64,000 nucleotides of DNA from Escherichia phage Murica, in sequence record NC_041871.1, one strand, 5' to 3'. The notes below the pieces were generated by a model. The model saw nothing but the letters and a program-made list of their open reading frames with translations. It was not told the DNA's origin and ran no database searches. This document shows positions 2,530 to 9,217 of the stretch, one piece after another; position 1 is the stretch's first letter; each line of letters starts with the position of its first letter. The position numbers and the translations under genes are program-made.

Positions 2530-2910
2530 TTAATCGTAGTGTGCCAAAATCTCTCCATCGTTGCAAGTTCCCTCTACAAAGTTATGAAGATTCATGCACT
2601 CATCTTGATAGAAGAATTTACCGCTTTTCAGCCGTAGGCCAAACAACTCCGCATCTCCACGATGGCAAGCCTCTACAAGTTCATAGATTTCATACGGCAA
2701 CTCTCCGTCGTCATGGAAGAATCCAGCCTTATCGTTGACATAAATGAAGAAATAATCACTGCTATCGCAAGCGTCCAATATTTTAAACCAGACTTCATCT
2801 ACATCTTTTTCTCGGATATCGATCACGCAAGTGGAGCTGCATTCGTACTCCTTCTCCGGCTCCTCGGTCAATACCACCAGGTAGTTTCCCCGCTTACCTA
2901 CTTTAGCCAT
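2530..2910 (-). CDS. hypothetical protein (start trimmed to MAKVGKRG)
   Basis: ORF 2530-2958 in track. The ATG at 2908-2910 has a strong SD (AAGGGGGG) and lies 10 nt after the stop of the AAA+ gene; the longer start would overlap that gene. Confidence 0.45.
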   Translation of the reverse strand: MAKVGKRGNYLVVLTEEPEKEYECSSTCVIDIREKDVDEVWFKILDACDSSDYFFIYVNDKAGFFHDDGELPYEIYELVEACHRGDAELFGLRLKSGKFFYQDECMNLHNFVEGTCNDGEILAHYD

Positions 2911-2920
2911 ACAACCCCCC

Positions 2921-4105
2921 TTAAGCTTTAGCCAAAATGGCGCTAAACTCTTCACCAAACTCTTTTACAATCTTCATCAGGTTTGGGTATGCTTTGATCA
3001 GCTGAGCAACAATCTTGTCACGCCCTTTACCGATAAGCAAGGCATTTCCTAAGGCATTAGGTTTCATCATCGCCATAAAGACTGAGAATACAAAATCTCG
3101 GTTCTCGTCCTTGAAGTTTTCCCAAAGGAAATCGAGGAAGTTTGCCACGCAGCTGACAAGATCTTCGTCTGAGATACTTGCATTTTCCATCATATTGCGA
3201 ATAGCGATACAACCTTCAGATCCAAGAATCCACAAAATGTCTGGCTGCTTAGGACCTACGTATTCTTTGCAGCCACCTGCCATAATCCGACCGATTTCCG
3301 GTAAATTACGTTTCTTGGTGTGGTAAGTCCAGATCTCTACCGCTGCAGTGTGACCAATAGCACCTTGTAGAAGAACACGGGCCATAGCGTCAGAAATAAT
3401 ACCGCTGTCAAAATCGTGCAAGATGTCAGATGCAGCAACCCAAGATCGTGGTGTGGCAAAAGATGGACAATTAATCTCAGCCATAGCCTCATAATTATCA
3501 ATAGCTGATGGAACTCTTTTCAGATACCCAATTACAGAGGAGTGAACCCCGTTGAGGAATGCGTAGTCCTCAATAAACACCTCTGCATTGCTTGTAACCT
3601 CTACAATGATAAAACGGTTAGCCAGAGGGGCTTCGAGCGCCGAAAGAACCGCACCATCTGTAGAACGGTTACCCGCAGCCACAAAAACAGAACCCTTAGG
3701 GAATGCATAGGTGCCGCACTTGTGGTCAAGCATAATTTGCATTGCAACCTTTTGCAGGTAGTTATCTGCATGAGTGAGCTCATCCAGAAAGATAATTCCG
3801 CTCCAGTCAGGATCCGCAGGCCAAAATTCTGGAATTGCAAACACTGTACGTGTAGTTCCATCCGCTTCTACAGGGATAGGTAGCCCAGATAAGTCGGCAG
3901 GATCTTTATCTGACAGTCGCACGTCAACAAGGTTGTCATCTCGCTCACCGAACATATTATCAGCGATCTGCTTCATCACCTGGCTTTTACCCACACCCAT
4001 TGGTCCCAAAATTAGGACAGATCGGCTATGACGTTGGGCAAACTGAATAATAGCTGGCAACTCACGGACAGTGATTTGACCACTTTCGAATACGTTTCTT
4101 GACAT
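2921..4105 (-). CDS. AAA+ ATPase, MoxR/CbbQ/CobS-like (AAA_5-type)
   Basis: Walker A GPMGVGKS, Walker B IIFLDEL, sensor-1-like VAAGN. 394 aa. Confidence 0.7.
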   Translation of the reverse strand: MSRNVFESGQITVRELPAIIQFAQRHSRSVLILGPMGVGKSQVMKQIADNMFGERDDNLVDVRLSDKDPADLSGLPIPVEADGTTRTVFAIPEFWPADPDWSGIIFLDELTHADNYLQKVAMQIMLDHKCGTYAFPKGSVFVAAGNRSTDGAVLSALEAPLANRFIIVEVTSNAEVFIEDYAFLNGVHSSVIGYLKRVPSAIDNYEAMAEINCPSFATPRSWVAASDILHDFDSGIISDAMARVLLQGAIGHTAAVEIWTYHTKKRNLPEIGRIMAGGCKEYVGPKQPDILWILGSEGCIAIRNMMENASISDEDLVSCVANFLDFLWENFKDENRDFVFSVFMAMMKPNALGNALLIGKGRDKIVAQLIKAYPNLMKIVKEFGEEFSAILAKA

Positions 4106-4374
4106 TAGTAAAAGTCCTCTACTTGTGTGTAAGTGTTTTCAAAGTTTTCCAAAACAGATATCACATCGAATCTGTCAATATCATACGTGACTCTCCAGTT
4201 GTACGCAACCCTTTCTGCTGTTGCCTCTTCTGGCGCTAGTCGTCTGCTGGCATAAAAGAGTGTTGGAGTACACTTTCTTGCTTGCCCTCTAACTTTCCCA
4301 TAATAATATCTGTGAATATCTTTGTCAAAATTTAACTCTTTTTCTGCACGAAGTTCATATTGCTGGTATAACAT
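4105..4374 (-). CDS. hypothetical protein, 89 aa
   Basis: ORF in operon context; start overlaps the upstream stop (translational coupling). Confidence 0.4.
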   Translation of the reverse strand: MLYQQYELRAEKELNFDKDIHRYYYGKVRGQARKCTPTLFYASRRLAPEEATAERVAYNWRVTYDIDRFDVISVLENFENTYTQVEDFY

Positions 4375-4418
4375 CTCTACTACTCCTTAAGCAGCATCCT
4401 TGCCGCCATTCCTGCCCA

Positions 4419-4799
4419 CTAAAATGCAGTCCGAATCCAGACAAGGTTCTTATCTGCCCAATCATAGAGGCAAGTCATTGCACTATTGAATTGCTCACAC
4501 GGAGGATAATCTTCTTCCATCTGGCGCATAGCAGAGCCTTGTGGGTAAAGCTCCCGTGCTGCAAACCACGCGTCGTAGTCATCAACGGTGTCGAAGTAGT
4601 ATACAACATCCTCTAACTCAGGATCGAACTTTGAACTATCAGGATCCAGTTGTTCAGGGAACTTGGAGCGTAACTTGCCAGCCACAATACTTGCCAACTC
4701 GCTAACATGCTTATTGTCCCACTCCACTAGCTTCCCGTCTTCAGTGATGCGTCCTAACCACTGATCATGAAGGTCAACTGTTGTCTTCCACTGAGCCAT
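4419..4799 (-). CDS. hypothetical acidic protein, 126 aa
   Basis: ORF in a compact early operon; D/E-rich composition. Confidence 0.45.
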   Translation of the reverse strand: MAQWKTTVDLHDQWLGRITEDGKLVEWDNKHVSELASIVAGKLRSKFPEQLDPDSSKFDPELEDVVYYFDTVDDYDAWFAARELYPQGSAMRQMEEDYPPCEQFNSAMTCLYDWADKNLVWIRTAF

Positions 4800-4801
4800 T
4801 A

Positions 4802-5059
4802 TCAGTCCACCTCTTCTTCTCGTTGTAGTTCAAGATACCCGTAGGTCTGGACATCTTGAAGGGTGTGGAACTCCCCCTCTGCCGCTAAGGCACGAACAAC
4901 TTGGCACAAAACCTTATGAGGAACTTCATCCAAACCTAGATTCAGTGCAGGAAACACCTTATCTAAGTCAACAAAATAAACGAACTGTAGCTCACCAGCT
5001 TCAAAAGGTGTATCTTCAATAAACATCTTCTCGGCATTAGTCAAGATCTGCACTTTCAT
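4802..5059 (-). CDS. hypothetical acidic protein, 85 aa
   Basis: ORF, tightly packed; acidic C-terminus (QREEEVD). Confidence 0.4.
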   Translation of the reverse strand: MKVQILTNAEKMFIEDTPFEAGELQFVYFVDLDKVFPALNLGLDEVPHKVLCQVVRALAAEGEFHTLQDVQTYGYLELQREEEVD

Positions 5060-5415
5060 TATTCTACCTCCTCTTCTTTTTCTTCGGCATTAGTTTCATG
5101 GCTACCCCACTCGGGAGTTTCCACCTCGATAGTAAACTCACGCACTACACGGTAATTGCCCATGAAGCGCTCTACTTCGTCAAGGCTTATGGAGAGGCCA
5201 TTGGCAACCAGGTCTGCAGCACCCTCTTCTACCAGGTAGTCCAGATTGGCTTCCAGAGCCTCAGGTTCAAACCCTGTCAATGCAATCAGATAACCTTCCC
5301 CTTCATCAGGGAGGACAATACAGCCCAATTGATTTTCTTTAAAAAGGCAGTGACCATCATTATTGATTGGGTGTTCATTGCAGTAAATAGCTGCACGATA
5401 AGTAACTTTAGACAT
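5059..5415 (-). CDS. hypothetical highly acidic protein (start trimmed to MSKVTYRA)
   Basis: Track ORF 5059-5436. ATG at 5413-5415 has GGAG 9 nt upstream and sits inside the 29-bp repeat. Strongly E/D-rich with a poly-Glu C-terminus. Confidence 0.45.
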   Translation of the reverse strand: MSKVTYRAAIYCNEHPINNDGHCLFKENQLGCIVLPDEGEGYLIALTGFEPEALEANLDYLVEEGAADLVANGLSISLDEVERFMGNYRVVREFTIEVETPEWGSHETNAEEKEEEVE

Positions 5416-5420
5416 CGGTA
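5392..5420 (-). repeat. 29-bp exact repeat, copy A (inverted relative to copy B at 7254-7282), spans the start codon
   Basis: Reverse complement of 5392-5420 equals 7254-7282 (TACCGATGTCTAAAGTTACTTATCGTGCA). Confidence 0.9.
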
Positions 5421-5428
5421 AGGTCTCC

Positions 5429-5707
5429 TTAGGCAATTGTCATTTTACATTCTTGAAATTTTAACACAAGACGGTGATTGTGTCTAGTGTCTAAAAAGAT
5501 TTTTTCAACCATCAGGCACACGGTATAACCGTCCATCTTGTTGACAACAAAATCTCCAGGATGAGGGAGGATGTCTCCCGGATTGGGGAAACATAGTCCA
5601 CTCAGAAAGGCATCGTCAGTGGTGGACTTAATAGATTTCCACACACTGTCTGCCTGAACATGTTCACCGACGTAATATACATTACCACATGCCTTCATCA
5701 TAGTCAA
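5429..5707 (-). CDS. hypothetical protein, 92 aa
   Basis: ORF in operon context. Confidence 0.4.
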   Translation of the reverse strand: MTMMKACGNVYYVGEHVQADSVWKSIKSTTDDAFLSGLCFPNPGDILPHPGDFVVNKMDGYTVCLMVEKIFLDTRHNHRLVLKFQECKMTIA

Positions 5708-6603
5708 ACCCTCGCATAAATTAAACTTGTATCAGTATACTTCTTTAATGGGTAAATATCCTGTCCATAGATGCAATCATTAAACACCTCATCTACCCAA
5801 AGGCTACACTTATATCCCATCATTTCTAAAACACCCATCTCTTCTTCGGTAAACTTATCACCGCTCTTGCAAGATGTCAATACCTCATTCTGAACTCTTG
5901 CTACCTCGAAGCGGTTATTGGCAATATCGCTATTGGCGATCAAATACTCACCTAGAGGGTGTGCGGCATTAAAGATGCACAGTGGACGGCTGACGTAATA
6001 GTCTCCAGGTGTATAAAAATTGTTGAGGTCTTTCACTAGAACATTCTTATCAGTCACTTCATTTATAACATCATGCATATCGCACATCTTTATATGTTTG
6101 AGGATTCCATCCCCCATCACAAAATAAAAACTTGCTGAGACACTTTCGGCATAGATCTTACTAGATCCGTTGTAGTTGTATTTTACTCGGATGCTAACGG
6201 GGGTTTTTCCTGTCGCGTTAGCCATCATCCAAAGAAATGGCAGCTCATACTTCTCCTCTGAGGAAACAAAAGGTGAGGTAGCCAGAGATCGAAAACCTCC
6301 AGAGAAGTTGAAAGTTACAGAACCGCTCCGGCGGTATGATACCGCGTATTCTACTTTTATATCGACATACCCATTGGAATAGGTGTGTCCTTCATTATCT
6401 AAATATGTCCACTTATCAGACCCAGATACCAATCTACGCTCAATAACCTTCATCACTATAGGAATTAATGGGTTGGTACAAACCGCTTTTGAAGTAGCTT
6501 TATCATCTAAAGCCTCGTAAATTGCAGAAAGGATGTCCCCAGCTGAAAGATTGGTTGTTATGTCCTGTTTCCACCGCGTACTAAAACTGTTAAGATTTGC
6601 CAT
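5704..6603 (-). CDS. hypothetical protein, 299 aa (first gene of the minus-strand accessory operon)
   Basis: ATG at 6601-6603 preceded by AGGAG; sits directly downstream of the minus-strand promoter. Confidence 0.5.
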   Translation of the reverse strand: MANLNSFSTRWKQDITTNLSAGDILSAIYEALDDKATSKAVCTNPLIPIVMKVIERRLVSGSDKWTYLDNEGHTYSNGYVDIKVEYAVSYRRSGSVTFNFSGGFRSLATSPFVSSEEKYELPFLWMMANATGKTPVSIRVKYNYNGSSKIYAESVSASFYFVMGDGILKHIKMCDMHDVINEVTDKNVLVKDLNNFYTPGDYYVSRPLCIFNAAHPLGEYLIANSDIANNRFEVARVQNEVLTSCKSGDKFTEEEMGVLEMMGYKCSLWVDEVFNDCIYGQDIYPLKKYTDTSLIYARV

Positions 6604-6643: not shown

Positions 6644-6672
6644 ACTATATTGTGGAGTTAGAGTAAAGTCAA
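6644..6672 (-). promoter_or_regulatory. sigma70-like promoter, TTGACT-N17-TATAGT, minus strand
   Basis: -35 is reverse complement of 6667-6672, -10 is reverse complement of 6644-6649, 17-nt spacer; about 40 nt upstream of the 6603 start. Confidence 0.55.
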
Positions 6673-6685
6673 CACGTTTTTGATG

Positions 6686-6714
6686 TTGACATCTGTTGAG
6701 ACAATTGATACGAT
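6686..6714 (+). promoter_or_regulatory. sigma70-like promoter, TTGACA-N17-TACGAT with TG extended -10, plus strand
   Basis: TTGACA at 6686-6691, 17-nt spacer, TACGAT at 6709-6714 preceded by TGA; upstream of ATG 6746. Confidence 0.5.
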
Positions 6715-6745
6715 TTCTTCACTTACAGAGCACGAGAGACGACTC

Positions 6746-7723
6746 ATGAATCTTGAAAAATATTATACACCAGAAGAGTTAGAGCGCTTGCTCAAAAAAT
6801 ATAGACGCAAACAGAATAACGCACGGAAACGAGATATAGAGTTCGACCTGTCATGGGAAGAATACCTCCTATTTGGTAAAAAACTTTTAGGAGATGGAGT
6901 ATGCGACTATACCCTTATACCTTTTGACATGCACACAGATGAAAACGGGCTGGGGAATCCTTTCTACCCATCCCTGGAGCGGATAGATGATGAAGGTCCT
7001 TATGCGGTTGATAACTGTTGTGTGGTGGGATTGAGATGCAACTCTCTAAAGGACTGTCTGGTAGATAAAAAGACTGCAGTCTTGATTAAAGACGAAACTG
7101 ATCGAAAAATTGTCCAGCAGATGATGCTCCACCTGAGCGAAGAGCGTATGGAGAAATTGAAAGGTGATTATACTTTTGAAGATTTCATCTTGCAATATGG
7201 AACGGAAGAGGATAAACTAGCACTCTTTGACGAAGAAGAGGAGGAAGATATGCTACCGATGTCTAAAGTTACTTATCGTGCACCCAAGAAGCACATTTCC
7301 GACATTGTAAACGAGCCTATCACAGAAGAGATTGAAGAAATGACGCAACAGGTGCATGAAGAGGAAAAAGAGACTCAGGAGGTCGAAGAGGAGCTTACAG
7401 AAGAGGTTCCTGCACTACCTGATGATGTTGAGATTGCCAAAGCTTACACTTTCTATTGTCAAACGTTCTACGATGTAGGTATGAAAGTTGATCTGTCGTT
7501 CAGCCAATTTAAGAGTTCGTATATTCGCAAATGCTGTGCTTTAACTGGTGAACGTCTTGGAGCTGGACTTAAACCCCTGTTGGTGACCGACTGGAATAAA
7601 GGTTTCACTAAAGGAAACTTTATGGTAGTATCTCCAATTATGGAGAAAGCTATGACAGATCTTATGAAGACCACCCGCATGACAATGACCGAGTTGGCAG
7701 GTATTTTCAAACACGTTAAATAA
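6746..7723 (+). CDS. hypothetical protein with an internally duplicated Cys-containing domain and an acidic linker
   Basis: Track ORF starts at TTG 6680 inside the promoter; re-called to ATG 6746 (GAGAG upstream). Both halves share the pattern D-x-x-F/L-x-x-S ... G-x-Y ... N-x-x-V. Contains copy B of the 29-bp repeat internally (…MLPMSKVTYRAP…). Confidence 0.5.
   Translation: MNLEKYYTPEELERLLKKYRRKQNNARKRDIEFDLSWEEYLLFGKKLLGDGVCDYTLIPFDMHTDENGLGNPFYPSLERIDDEGPYAVDNCCVVGLRCNSLKDCLVDKKTAVLIKDETDRKIVQQMMLHLSEERMEKLKGDYTFEDFILQYGTEEDKLALFDEEEEEDMLPMSKVTYRAPKKHISDIVNEPITEEIEEMTQQVHEEEKETQEVEEELTEEVPALPDDVEIAKAYTFYCQTFYDVGMKVDLSFSQFKSSYIRKCCALTGERLGAGLKPLLVTDWNKGFTKGNFMVVSPIMEKAMTDLMKTTRMTMTELAGIFKHVK
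7254..7282 (+). repeat. 29-bp exact repeat, copy B
   Basis: Identical to the reverse complement of 5392-5420; encodes the same peptide MSKVTYRA. Confidence 0.9.
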
Positions 7724-7727
7724 TGAC

Positions 7728-7744
7728 AGGGGCCAATGGCCCCT
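7728..7744 (+). promoter_or_regulatory. intergenic hairpin AGGGGCC-AAT-GGCCCCT
   Basis: Perfect 7-bp stem immediately after the TAA at 7721-7723 and before the RBS (GGAG) of the next gene. Confidence 0.4.
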
Positions 7745-7756
7745 TCTGGAGTTTTA

Positions 7757-9217
7757 ATGGATAGCAGAAGTTCAGAAATCATTGCCTCTCAGAAAGATGA
7801 TGCCCTGAGAATGTTGCAGGCTGCACGTATGTATCTCCTTGAAAAGCTGCCGTTTTATGGCACACTACTGTCAGGGTTGCAGTTCGTAGAAAACCACACA
7901 TGGTGCTCCACCATGGCAACCGACCATAAACGCATCTATTACAGTCCTGAGTTCATTATGGGATTGGCTGATGAACGCAAGGCTATTCTTAAGGCTTCTC
8001 TAACTGACGAGCAGTTTGAGATGGCTGAAGTTTTCTATTCCCCAAAATCTGTGAAAGAGGTGGCCTTCCTTCTGTCACATGAGGTGGGGCATATTATCTG
8101 TGATCACCTAGTCCGTGGTAAAAGCTTTGAGCCGGAACTGTTCAATATTGCTTGTGATCACGTTATCAACACAGGCCTTGTGGTTGACTTTAGCAAACCT
8201 CCTTGTGTTTTCTTCCCGAAGGGGAAAAGCACTACGTTCATGAAAGGTAAGCCTTTTGGCTTCTTAGCCAGCTGCTACTGCGACATGAAGTTTCATGGAT
8301 GGATTGCTGAGAACGTTTATGCAGTTCTTGATAAGCAAAGAGATCAGAATAACGGTAAAAGTAAGAACGGTAAAGGTGAGAACTCTCAAAGCGATAAGCG
8401 ACAAACCGATGATCACATGAGTGGGAACGGTGGCACCAGTGATAATCTTGGAAAGGCTATGGGGTATGATCAGCCACAACCTGTAATCAGCCAATCTGAT
8501 AAAGATCAGGCCATGCAGGACTCTGGTGATATGCTGGAGGCAGCAATGCAAGCGTCCGGAGGCCGTTGCCCTGAGGCGGTGCGTGAGTTTGTCAAGAACA
8601 GAGGTAAGCCTGTAATCAACTATATAGACATCATTAAGCAACGTATGTTGTCTAAAAGAAAGGCCGAACTGACCTACAGAAAACCTGGTCGCCGATCTGG
8701 GTCTTTGACCAGCACAATGCGAAAAGTTGGGGCTATAAACAAGAACCAGCACGTTATTGTTCCTGGTCGTAATCCGGAAAACACTATAGATATTGTGGTG
8801 GCTTTAGACGTTTCTGGCTCGATCTCTCAAAGAACTTTAAAGAAAATGTTCAATGAAATCACCGGATTGTGCAATCTGTATAAAGAGTTTAAGGTTACAA
8901 TGTTCTGTTGGTCAACTGAGGTTGGAGAGGTTAAAGTATACACTCGCGGCAACATAGACGAGATGGTCAACTATGAGGTCCACTCAACATGGGGCACAAC
9001 AGCTGCTTGCGTGTTCGAGTATCTGGATGCCAACATACCTAATGCAAAAGATGTCATCGTCCTGACCGACCTATACTTTGAGCATAACTTTGAACAAAAG
9101 GTTGTTGACAACAAGTGGAAAAAGTACGATACTCTATGGGTCCTCACTAAGGGGTATAATAAAAATTATATCCCGAGCTTTGGGAAAACTGTGGAATTAA
9201 TCGAGTACGCTAAGTAA
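7757..9217 (+). CDS. vWA-domain protein with N-terminal HExxH metallopeptidase-like domain (DUF2201-like, usual partner of MoxR ATPases)
   Basis: HExxH in LLSHEVGHIICDHL; MIDAS-like DxSxS in VALDVSGSIS. Start re-called from 7736 (inside the hairpin) to ATG 7757. Confidence 0.6.
   Translation: MDSRSSEIIASQKDDALRMLQAARMYLLEKLPFYGTLLSGLQFVENHTWCSTMATDHKRIYYSPEFIMGLADERKAILKASLTDEQFEMAEVFYSPKSVKEVAFLLSHEVGHIICDHLVRGKSFEPELFNIACDHVINTGLVVDFSKPPCVFFPKGKSTTFMKGKPFGFLASCYCDMKFHGWIAENVYAVLDKQRDQNNGKSKNGKGENSQSDKRQTDDHMSGNGGTSDNLGKAMGYDQPQPVISQSDKDQAMQDSGDMLEAAMQASGGRCPEAVREFVKNRGKPVINYIDIIKQRMLSKRKAELTYRKPGRRSGSLTSTMRKVGAINKNQHVIVPGRNPENTIDIVVALDVSGSISQRTLKKMFNEITGLCNLYKEFKVTMFCWSTEVGEVKVYTRGNIDEMVNYEVHSTWGTTAACVFEYLDANIPNAKDVIVLTDLYFEHNFEQKVVDNKWKKYDTLWVLTKGYNKNYIPSFGKTVELIEYAK

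Follow-up and report, generated by a model that had tools for sequence, protein, structure and literature searches.

Small acidic proteins gp6, gp7 and gp8 of an rV5-like Escherichia phage as candidate host-directed binding proteins

What do small, strongly acidic proteins do for a virulent coliphage when three of them are encoded side by side? The question is raised by a 64,000-nucleotide (nt) stretch of Escherichia phage Murica (NC_041871.1; hereafter the window), in which the consecutive genes gp8, gp7 and gp6, numbered as in phage rV5, each specify such a protein. The rV5-like phages belong to the most often isolated phages of Escherichia coli and are candidate agents for therapy and biocontrol, and about two thirds of their genes are without a function. 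A sequence-only reading of the window had put forward gp6–gp8 as possible DNA mimics or anti-restriction factors. The explanation that we favour is wider: gp6–gp8 would be accessory proteins of the cytoplasm, directed at the host, produced early in infection and acting stoichiometrically, by binding a host protein without catalysis. Electrostatic nucleic-acid mimicry, by which the phage protein would occupy the basic surface where a host protein binds DNA or RNA, would be the most specific candidate mechanism. Taken as a whole, this explanation is held tentatively and is given slightly less than an even chance.

The window is that of an rV5-like Vequintavirus, a virulent myovirus of ~137 kb, and begins at rIIA; its region 4000–6000 is 100% identical to that of the Escherichia phages rV5_ev146, nimi and pangalan, and 118 phage records are at least 90% identical to it. 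gp8 (LL12_008; PHROG 12908; 118 amino acids, aa) lies at 5059–5415, gp7 (LL12_007; PHROG 13124; 85 aa) at 4802–5059 and gp6 (LL12_006; PHROG 6318; 126 aa) at 4419–4799, all on the minus strand and transcribed in the order gp8 (5415→5059), gp7 (5059→4802), gp6 (4799→4419). The gp8 stop and gp7 start share the overlap TAATG, and 2 nt separate the gp7 stop from the gp6 start. A strong Shine–Dalgarno (SD) site stands ahead of each gene, again on the minus strand: AAGGAG at 5425–5430 for gp8; GAGGAGGT at 5066–5073 for gp7, inside the last E-E-V codons of the acidic gp8 tail and annotated in LL12 as a ribosome-binding site at that position; and GAGGTGG at 4807–4813 for gp6, inside the C-terminal EEEVD codons of gp7. 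These are genuine, translationally coupled protein-coding genes, and the coordinates and coupling given in the sequence-only reading were right. They are CDS 006–008 of LL12 and rV5_ev146, labelled ‘hypothetical’ or ‘Phage protein’. Table S3 of the rV5 paper (PMC3606486) gives genes 6, 7 and 8 as 126, 85 and 118 aa, with isoelectric points (pI) of 4.2, 4.1 and 4.0, and reports no homologs for them; rV5 gp6–gp8 and LL12 gp006–008 are the same genes, with ~96–100% protein identity across most Vequintavirus records. The annotated genes and their pI values have been in print since 2013; what is new here is the comparative evidence for kept charge, the gp6 fold, an SD account of the acidic tails, and a re-reading of the raw restriction data of the BASEL study.

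The acidity of the three proteins was borne out. A near-neutral pI, which the sequence-only reading had named as evidence that would tell against it, was not seen: computed as it had proposed, the pI values come to 4.2–4.3 and the net charges to between −11 and −20. gp8 has a pI of 4.19, 22.9% D+E and a net charge of −20 (−0.169 per residue); gp7 a pI of 4.32, 20.0% D+E and a net charge of −11 (−0.129 per residue); and gp6 a pI of 4.33, 19.8% D+E and a net charge of −13 (−0.103 per residue), with K+R making up 5.9–9.5% of the three. All of them fall within the compositional description of DNA mimics (small size, pI ~3–5, D+E of ~20% or more, few basic residues), but that description is non-specific, with 6 of the 68 crude open reading frames (ORFs) that served as the window background at ≤ −0.10 net charge per residue. 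Ranked by net negative charge per residue in the window, gp8 stands first, gp7 second and gp6 sixth. Reference densities of −0.239 for T7 Ocr and −0.098 for T4 Arn bracket those of gp8, gp7 and gp6. The four T7 proteins at ≤ −0.10 per residue are Ocr, gp5.9, gp1.5 (29 aa) and gp9, the scaffold protein, and two of the three small ones, Ocr and gp5.9, are proven DNA mimics (for gp5.9, PMC9836394). The charge heuristic therefore has some predictive value, as an anecdote from one phage.

That the charge is kept can be seen in two diverged lineages, found through context look-ups, in which the order gp8-gp7-gp6 is preserved. In one (L007–L009), identity to gp8, gp7 and gp6 is 61%, 57% and 56%, respectively; in the other (L014, L016, L018 and L019) it is ~26%, 35–38% and 35%, with the whole block gp10-gp9-gp8-gp7-gp6-gp5-ATPase preserved. 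Net charges of gp8, gp7 and gp6 are −20, −12 and −7 in L007, and −12, −9 and −12 in L018. Between the window and L007, non-synonymous differences per site (pN) are 0.29–0.32 across gp6–gp8 against saturated synonymous differences (pS) of 0.75–0.87 (gp8, 0.32 and 0.87; gp7, 0.32 and 0.79), so that all three genes are under purifying selection; they evolve 3–4 times faster than the neighbouring ATPase gene (pN = 0.09).

The distribution of the three genes, present in >110 genomes, separates gp7 and gp8 from gp6. gp8 and gp7 each occur in ~115 phage records, all Vequintavirus, at 82–100% identity. A word-index search of 5.8e9 proteins returned 8 close relatives of gp8, and a HMMER profile search of 1.84e9 cluster representatives 2 matches, both close. 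The families of gp7 and gp8 are orphans, restricted to Vequintavirus-like lineages of E. coli phages. gp6 homologs, at 27–40% identity, are found throughout the Vequintavirinae, including Mydovirus, Seunavirus and phages of Klebsiella, Salmonella and Cronobacter. Unrelated proteins, one of them a basic 162-aa protein of pI ~9, take up the gp7/gp8 positions in Mydo and 4MG. Variable slots with swapped genes are typical of accessory genes, and gp7/gp8 occupy such a lineage-variable slot. More remote gp6 homologs lie in other large phage contigs (L025, at 5001–5309, and L027). One of these two is a compact, 102-aa family member without the variable acidic middle segment, encoded near an HD-type phosphohydrolase homologous to the one found upstream of the Mydo and 4MG gp6.

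The genes lie in a putative transcription unit with a host-type promoter. A sigma-70-type promoter-like site (TTGACT-17-TATAGT; 6644–6672, minus strand), found by a consensus scan and corresponding to P010 of rV5, heads a leftward unit that runs through gp10, gp9, gp8, gp7, gp6, gp5 and a MoxR-like ATPase on to rIIA, with rIIA and rIIB in the same unit as gp6–gp8. In rV5, P010 was placed in a bidirectional promoter region that separates gene 10 from gene 11, and a transcription unit 10-1-238-164 was proposed (PMC3606486). A literature search found no Vequintavirus transcriptome; from the host-type promoter context, we infer early expression of gp6–gp8 as a reasonable expectation. None of the three was detected among the rV5 virion proteins by mass spectrometry (PMC3606486, Table S3).

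Published plating data bear on whether carriers of gp6–gp8 resist restriction–modification (R-M). The BASEL raw data (PMC8594841, S1 Data and S5 Table) were re-read for the carriers MaxTheCat, HeinrichReichert and EduardKellenberger. These phages have 9–15 EcoKI sites and 4–6 EcoCFT_I sites each, with HeinrichReichert (Bas58) at 9 and 4, and plate on the type I systems at an efficiency (EOP) of 0.06–0.83 for EcoKI and 0.22–1 for EcoCFT_I; on EcoRI the EOP is ~1e-4 to 1e-3, EcoRV and EcoCFT_II allow no plaques, and while the outcome with EcoP1 varies, one or both type III systems destroy the carriers (PMC8594841). The BASEL description of such phages as ‘exceptionally susceptible to RM systems’ was considered as a counter-argument to anti-restriction and rejected, as in the raw data it applies to type II and III only. 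Since type II systems destroy the carriers, gp6–gp8 do not provide general anti-restriction. The BASEL authors ascribe the weak type I restriction to the rarity of sites, and remark that these phages seem to lack effective R-M protection (PMC8594841). Siphovirus Bas01, however, with 3 EcoKI sites, plates at an EOP of ~1e-4 on EcoKI (PMC8594841), a ~10^4-fold restriction, and site rarity fails to explain the insensitivity. A homolog of lambda Ral, as an alternative cause, was rejected, there being none in the Vequintavirus records and none in the window.

The same data include phages outside the Vequintavirus group. The phi92-like Bas60–62 (12–14 EcoKI sites) and the FelixO1-like Bas63 (9 sites) plate at an EOP of 0.1–1.5 on the same type I strains (PMC8594841), and no gp7 or gp8 homologs are detectable in them. 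Three unrelated groups with 9–15 EcoKI sites, Vequintavirus, phi92-like and FelixO1-like, thus show an EOP of 0.06–1.5 on EcoKI, and each of them probably has functions by which type I restriction is evaded. As phages without gp7 and gp8 are equally insensitive to type I systems, the phenotype is not assignable to gp6–gp8. Selective escape from type I restriction would be expected of an Ocr/ArdA-type mimic and is compatible with one, but does not point to gp6–gp8.

This last result is one of several that weigh against a host-directed role or mimicry, and the searches for relatives supplied more. gp6–gp8 matched no Pfam family at E ≤ 1, nothing in NCBIfam or PADLOC, and no PDB entry in sequence (phmmer) and profile searches, Ocr being unlisted at E ≤ 10; nor was any sequence or profile similarity to Gam or T7 gp5.9 found. 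BLASTP of gp6–gp8 against T7 Ocr gave E > 0.1 in an 8-sequence database, and for T4 Arn the values were E ≥ 0.2 by BLASTP and E ≥ 0.35 by tblastn of Arn against the window. Full-length profile matches were obtained to PHROG 12908 for gp8 (E = 2e-80), PHROG 13124 for gp7 (8e-59) and PHROG 6318 for gp6 (2e-56), all of them families of unknown function. A gp6 model from a 43-sequence alignment (predicted local distance difference test, pLDDT, 94.1) consists of an N-terminal β-hairpin and a five-helix bundle; it is a generic helical bundle with no resemblance to any solved DNA mimic, Arn not being among the fold matches, and the matches in BFVD are unnamed family members only. The invariant residues of gp6 are mostly aromatic core residues, and its most acidic stretch, residues 49–76, is variable across the family. 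For gp8, the AlphaFold2 model is of mixed α/β type at low confidence (pLDDT 54.7), too poor to use. In a plasmid collection of 72,556 records gp6–gp8 were absent apart from one mis-filed phage genome, unlike ArdA-type factors; a weak gp6 match (E 0.07) occurs in a Pseudomonas plasmid. Known DNA mimics share no common fold, and these negatives therefore exclude membership of the Ocr, ArdA or Arn families, not the mechanism.

To this must be added the composition of the proteome and the nature of the tails, which bring in the view that the pattern is incidental: chance neighbours in an acidic small proteome, with SD-driven acidic C-termini and with functions unrelated to each other and to charge. 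The proteome is acidic overall, the median pI of the window ORFs being 5.1 and 43% lying below pI 5. A run of three ORFs at ≤ −0.10 net charge per residue, a threshold picked post hoc, arose in 2.4% of permutations when every ORF was shuffled and in 7% when the shuffling was limited to those under 200 aa, so that the clustering exceeds chance only modestly. No paralogy was detected among gp8, gp7 and gp6, and the window has further acidic proteins, gp3 and several more, at scattered places. Acidic positions, taken singly, show no clear excess of conservation over the rest: 67–72% of them stay acidic against 58–63% identity elsewhere, and the acidic measure is the more lenient. The EEKEEEVE ending noticed in the sequence-only reading is present at the gp8 C-terminus (...NAEEKEEEVE) but fails as a signal, for the last gp8 codons, GAA GAG GAG GTA GAA, include the gp7 SD site, the gp6 SD site falls in the same way within the EEEVD end of gp7, and the acidic tails are partly by-products of these embedded sites. 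Nor is the tail conserved: among gp8 variants it is frameshifted and K/R-rich in one (P0006) and short in another (P0007), in the 61%-identical L007 homolog it is unrelated yet still acidic, and in the 26%-identical L018 homolog it is missing, while the gp7 homolog of L007 has a non-acidic end (...HKTVLEGV). Yet all three families keep a net negative charge at 26–38% identity, even where tails are lost, and gp8 without its tail still carries −0.136 per residue; as the tail varies or is lost and the gp8 body is still acidic, the signal is that of the protein body. An incidental origin is judged unlikely.

We take a similarly reserved view of the idea that gp6–gp8 serve the machinery of the phage itself, with gp6 as an adaptor, substrate or regulator of the MoxR-like AAA+ ATPase and of a DUF2201 protein, and acidity as an incidental property. 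Of the Vequintavirinae-type loci examined, 19 encode the ATPase together with a gp6 homolog of full length, and in these gp6 lies upstream of the ATPase gene, next to it or separated from it by one or two small genes; the gene for the DUF2201 protein (VWA plus metallopeptidase-like) is on the other side of the divergent promoter; the block from gp10 to the ATPase is syntenic even where gp8 identity is only 26%; and the predicted gp6 fold is a helical bundle of the protein–protein-interaction type. However, gene-order conservation in a virulent phage is weak evidence for functional linkage, the gp6 homologs of L025 and L027 have no MoxR-like ATPase within 5 kb, and Mydo and 4MG keep the ATPase though their gp7 and gp8 are replaced. 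Since gp6 occurs subfamily-wide and is usually found beside the ATPase, it is less likely than gp7 and gp8 to be defence-specific.

The known mimics provide the closest comparisons. Ocr is a DNA-mimic inhibitor of type I R-M and of BREX (bacteriophage exclusion), and type II and type III systems are not inhibited by Ocr-type mimics. Should at least one of gp6–gp8 be an Ocr/ArdA-like mimic acting against type I R-M and perhaps also against BREX, gp8 would be the closest to Ocr in charge and size: the two proteins have 118 and 117 aa, are very acidic and non-virion, come from host-promoter-driven regions of virulent coliphages, and belong to phages insensitive to type I R-M, in the case of gp8 strongly restricted by type II and III and with no Ral homolog to explain the phenotype otherwise. 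Ocr differs from gp8, however, in its net charge (−28 versus −20), in being the first expressed gene where gp8 is third in its operon (gp8, gp7 and gp6 stand third to fifth), and in its all-helical structure, set against the low-confidence mixed α/β model of gp8. Neither Pfam, sequence nor profile comparison shows similarity between the two, and no likeness to Ocr, ArdA or Arn came out of the sequence and profile comparisons of gp6–gp8 or the fold search with gp6. Together with the type I insensitivity of phi92-like and FelixO1-like phages and the BASEL authors' own account, this makes an Ocr/ArdA-like function very unlikely.

Arn, another DNA mimic, inhibits McrBC and also binds H-NS. Like gp6–gp8 it is a small protein of a large virulent myovirus, early as gp6–gp8 probably are, and its charge density of −0.098 per residue equals that of gp6 and lies below those of gp7 and gp8; the lack of detectable sequence similarity and its absence from the gp6 fold matches set it apart. 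ArdA, also acidic, inhibits type I R-M and sits on conjugative elements, whereas gp6–gp8 are absent from the plasmid collection, the mis-filed phage genome aside, and have no Pfam or PDB match to it. T7 gp5.9 is a DNA-mimic inhibitor of RecBCD (PMC9836394). It resembles gp6–gp8 in being small, acidic (−0.154 per residue) and without family resemblance to other mimics, and differs from them in its length of 52 aa, in its known target and structure, and in having no similar sequence in the window. The gp5.9 case shows mimics to be orphans as a rule, recognisable by charge only.

In favour of gp6–gp8 as host-directed binding proteins we count the charge kept in diverged lineages, a charge density within the range of mimics, the variable slot, the host-type promoter, the non-virion status and the EcoKI plating. 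Whether at least one of the three is a host-protein-binding takeover or counter-defence factor is, on our assessment, evenly poised; that at least one is a nucleic-acid mimic is rather improbable, DNA mimicry being a reasonable candidate that rests on charge and is as yet unsupported. gp8 would be the best mimic candidate and gp7 the second, and among the host proteins that could be targeted are type I R-M or BREX-like enzymes, nucleases, nucleoid proteins and RNA polymerase. A bolder version is that gp8, possibly with gp7 and/or gp6, founds a new and structurally unrelated family of nucleic-acid-mimic inhibitors, which would explain the escape from type I restriction, or else puts out of action some other host system that binds DNA, such as BREX, a nuclease, nucleoid protein or structural maintenance of chromosomes complex; to this we attach a low probability. 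Were a decoy inhibitor indeed among gp6–gp8, a new fold would be added to the small set of known DNA mimics, and a host vulnerability or a phage-disarmed defence system would be pinpointed; otherwise they amount to three more acidic orphans. The BASEL raw data raise the question of what makes large virulent coliphages with 9–15 EcoKI sites nearly immune to type I restriction, for which gp6–gp8 are first-line candidates.

Three further features of gp8 and its surroundings were followed up. An N-terminal Cys/His metal site was rejected, as His15 and His22 are unconserved; Cys12, Cys23 and Cys32 are the sole invariant members of the set among close relatives. A tblastn search with T7 Gp2, an RNA polymerase inhibitor, gave a 28.9-bit match at 5113–5277, above all 300 shuffles, within a 107-aa antisense ORF opposite gp8 (5098–5421, plus strand). 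This Gp2-like ORF was rejected as a chance match, as the 61%-identical L007 lineage has several stop codons in this frame. Lastly, an inverted repeat of 29 nt, perfect and expected 0 times by chance, has one arm at 5392–5420 (minus strand), spanning the gp8 start codon and first 8 codons, and the other at 7254–7282 (plus strand), inside the Srd/HNH-like gp11 ORF (6680–7723), where it encodes the same peptide, LPMSKVTYRA, right after an acidic linker. The repeat is found in LL12, rV5_ev146 and ~117 Vequintavirus records, but not in Mydo, 4MG or the L007 lineage. Were the stretch between its arms inverted, an in-frame fusion of the gp11 N-terminal part to gp8 and a stand-alone gp11 C-terminal domain would result; this was rejected, the predicted junction occurring in 0 of 117 genomes.

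Among the neighbouring genes, gp3 (2530–2910, minus strand), downstream of the ATPase in the same operon, encodes a fourth strongly acidic small protein (126 aa, pI 4.43, net charge −16), the third most acidic per residue in the window and reported in the rV5 paper as a homolog of T5.083. The ATPase itself (2921–4105, minus strand) has weak Pfam AAA matches only; facing it across the divergent promoter region is the protein with DUF2201_N and DUF2201 domains, metallopeptidase-like and VWA-like (7736–9217, plus strand). This pairing resembles bacterial MoxR–VWA systems, and both proteins are conserved across the Vequintavirinae-type loci examined and were not found near the L025 and L027 gp6 homologs. 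Two annotation labels in the operon look unsupported. gp10 (5704–6603, minus strand) is a ‘putative alpha 1-3 fucosyltransferase’ in many records, yet is without a Pfam match, and the 89-aa gp5 (4105–4374, minus strand) falls in PHROG 13164, labelled ‘ATPase’, a label probably carried over from the neighbouring gene.

Some record names also look doubtful. The matches to window region 4000–6000 include 16 GenBank records named ‘Campylobacter phage’ (MG0656xx), four of which are listed at 99.5–99.8% identity, and CP057073.1, a 137.5-kb E. coli ‘plasmid’, is a complete Vequintavirus genome; these names are probably host or replicon mislabels.

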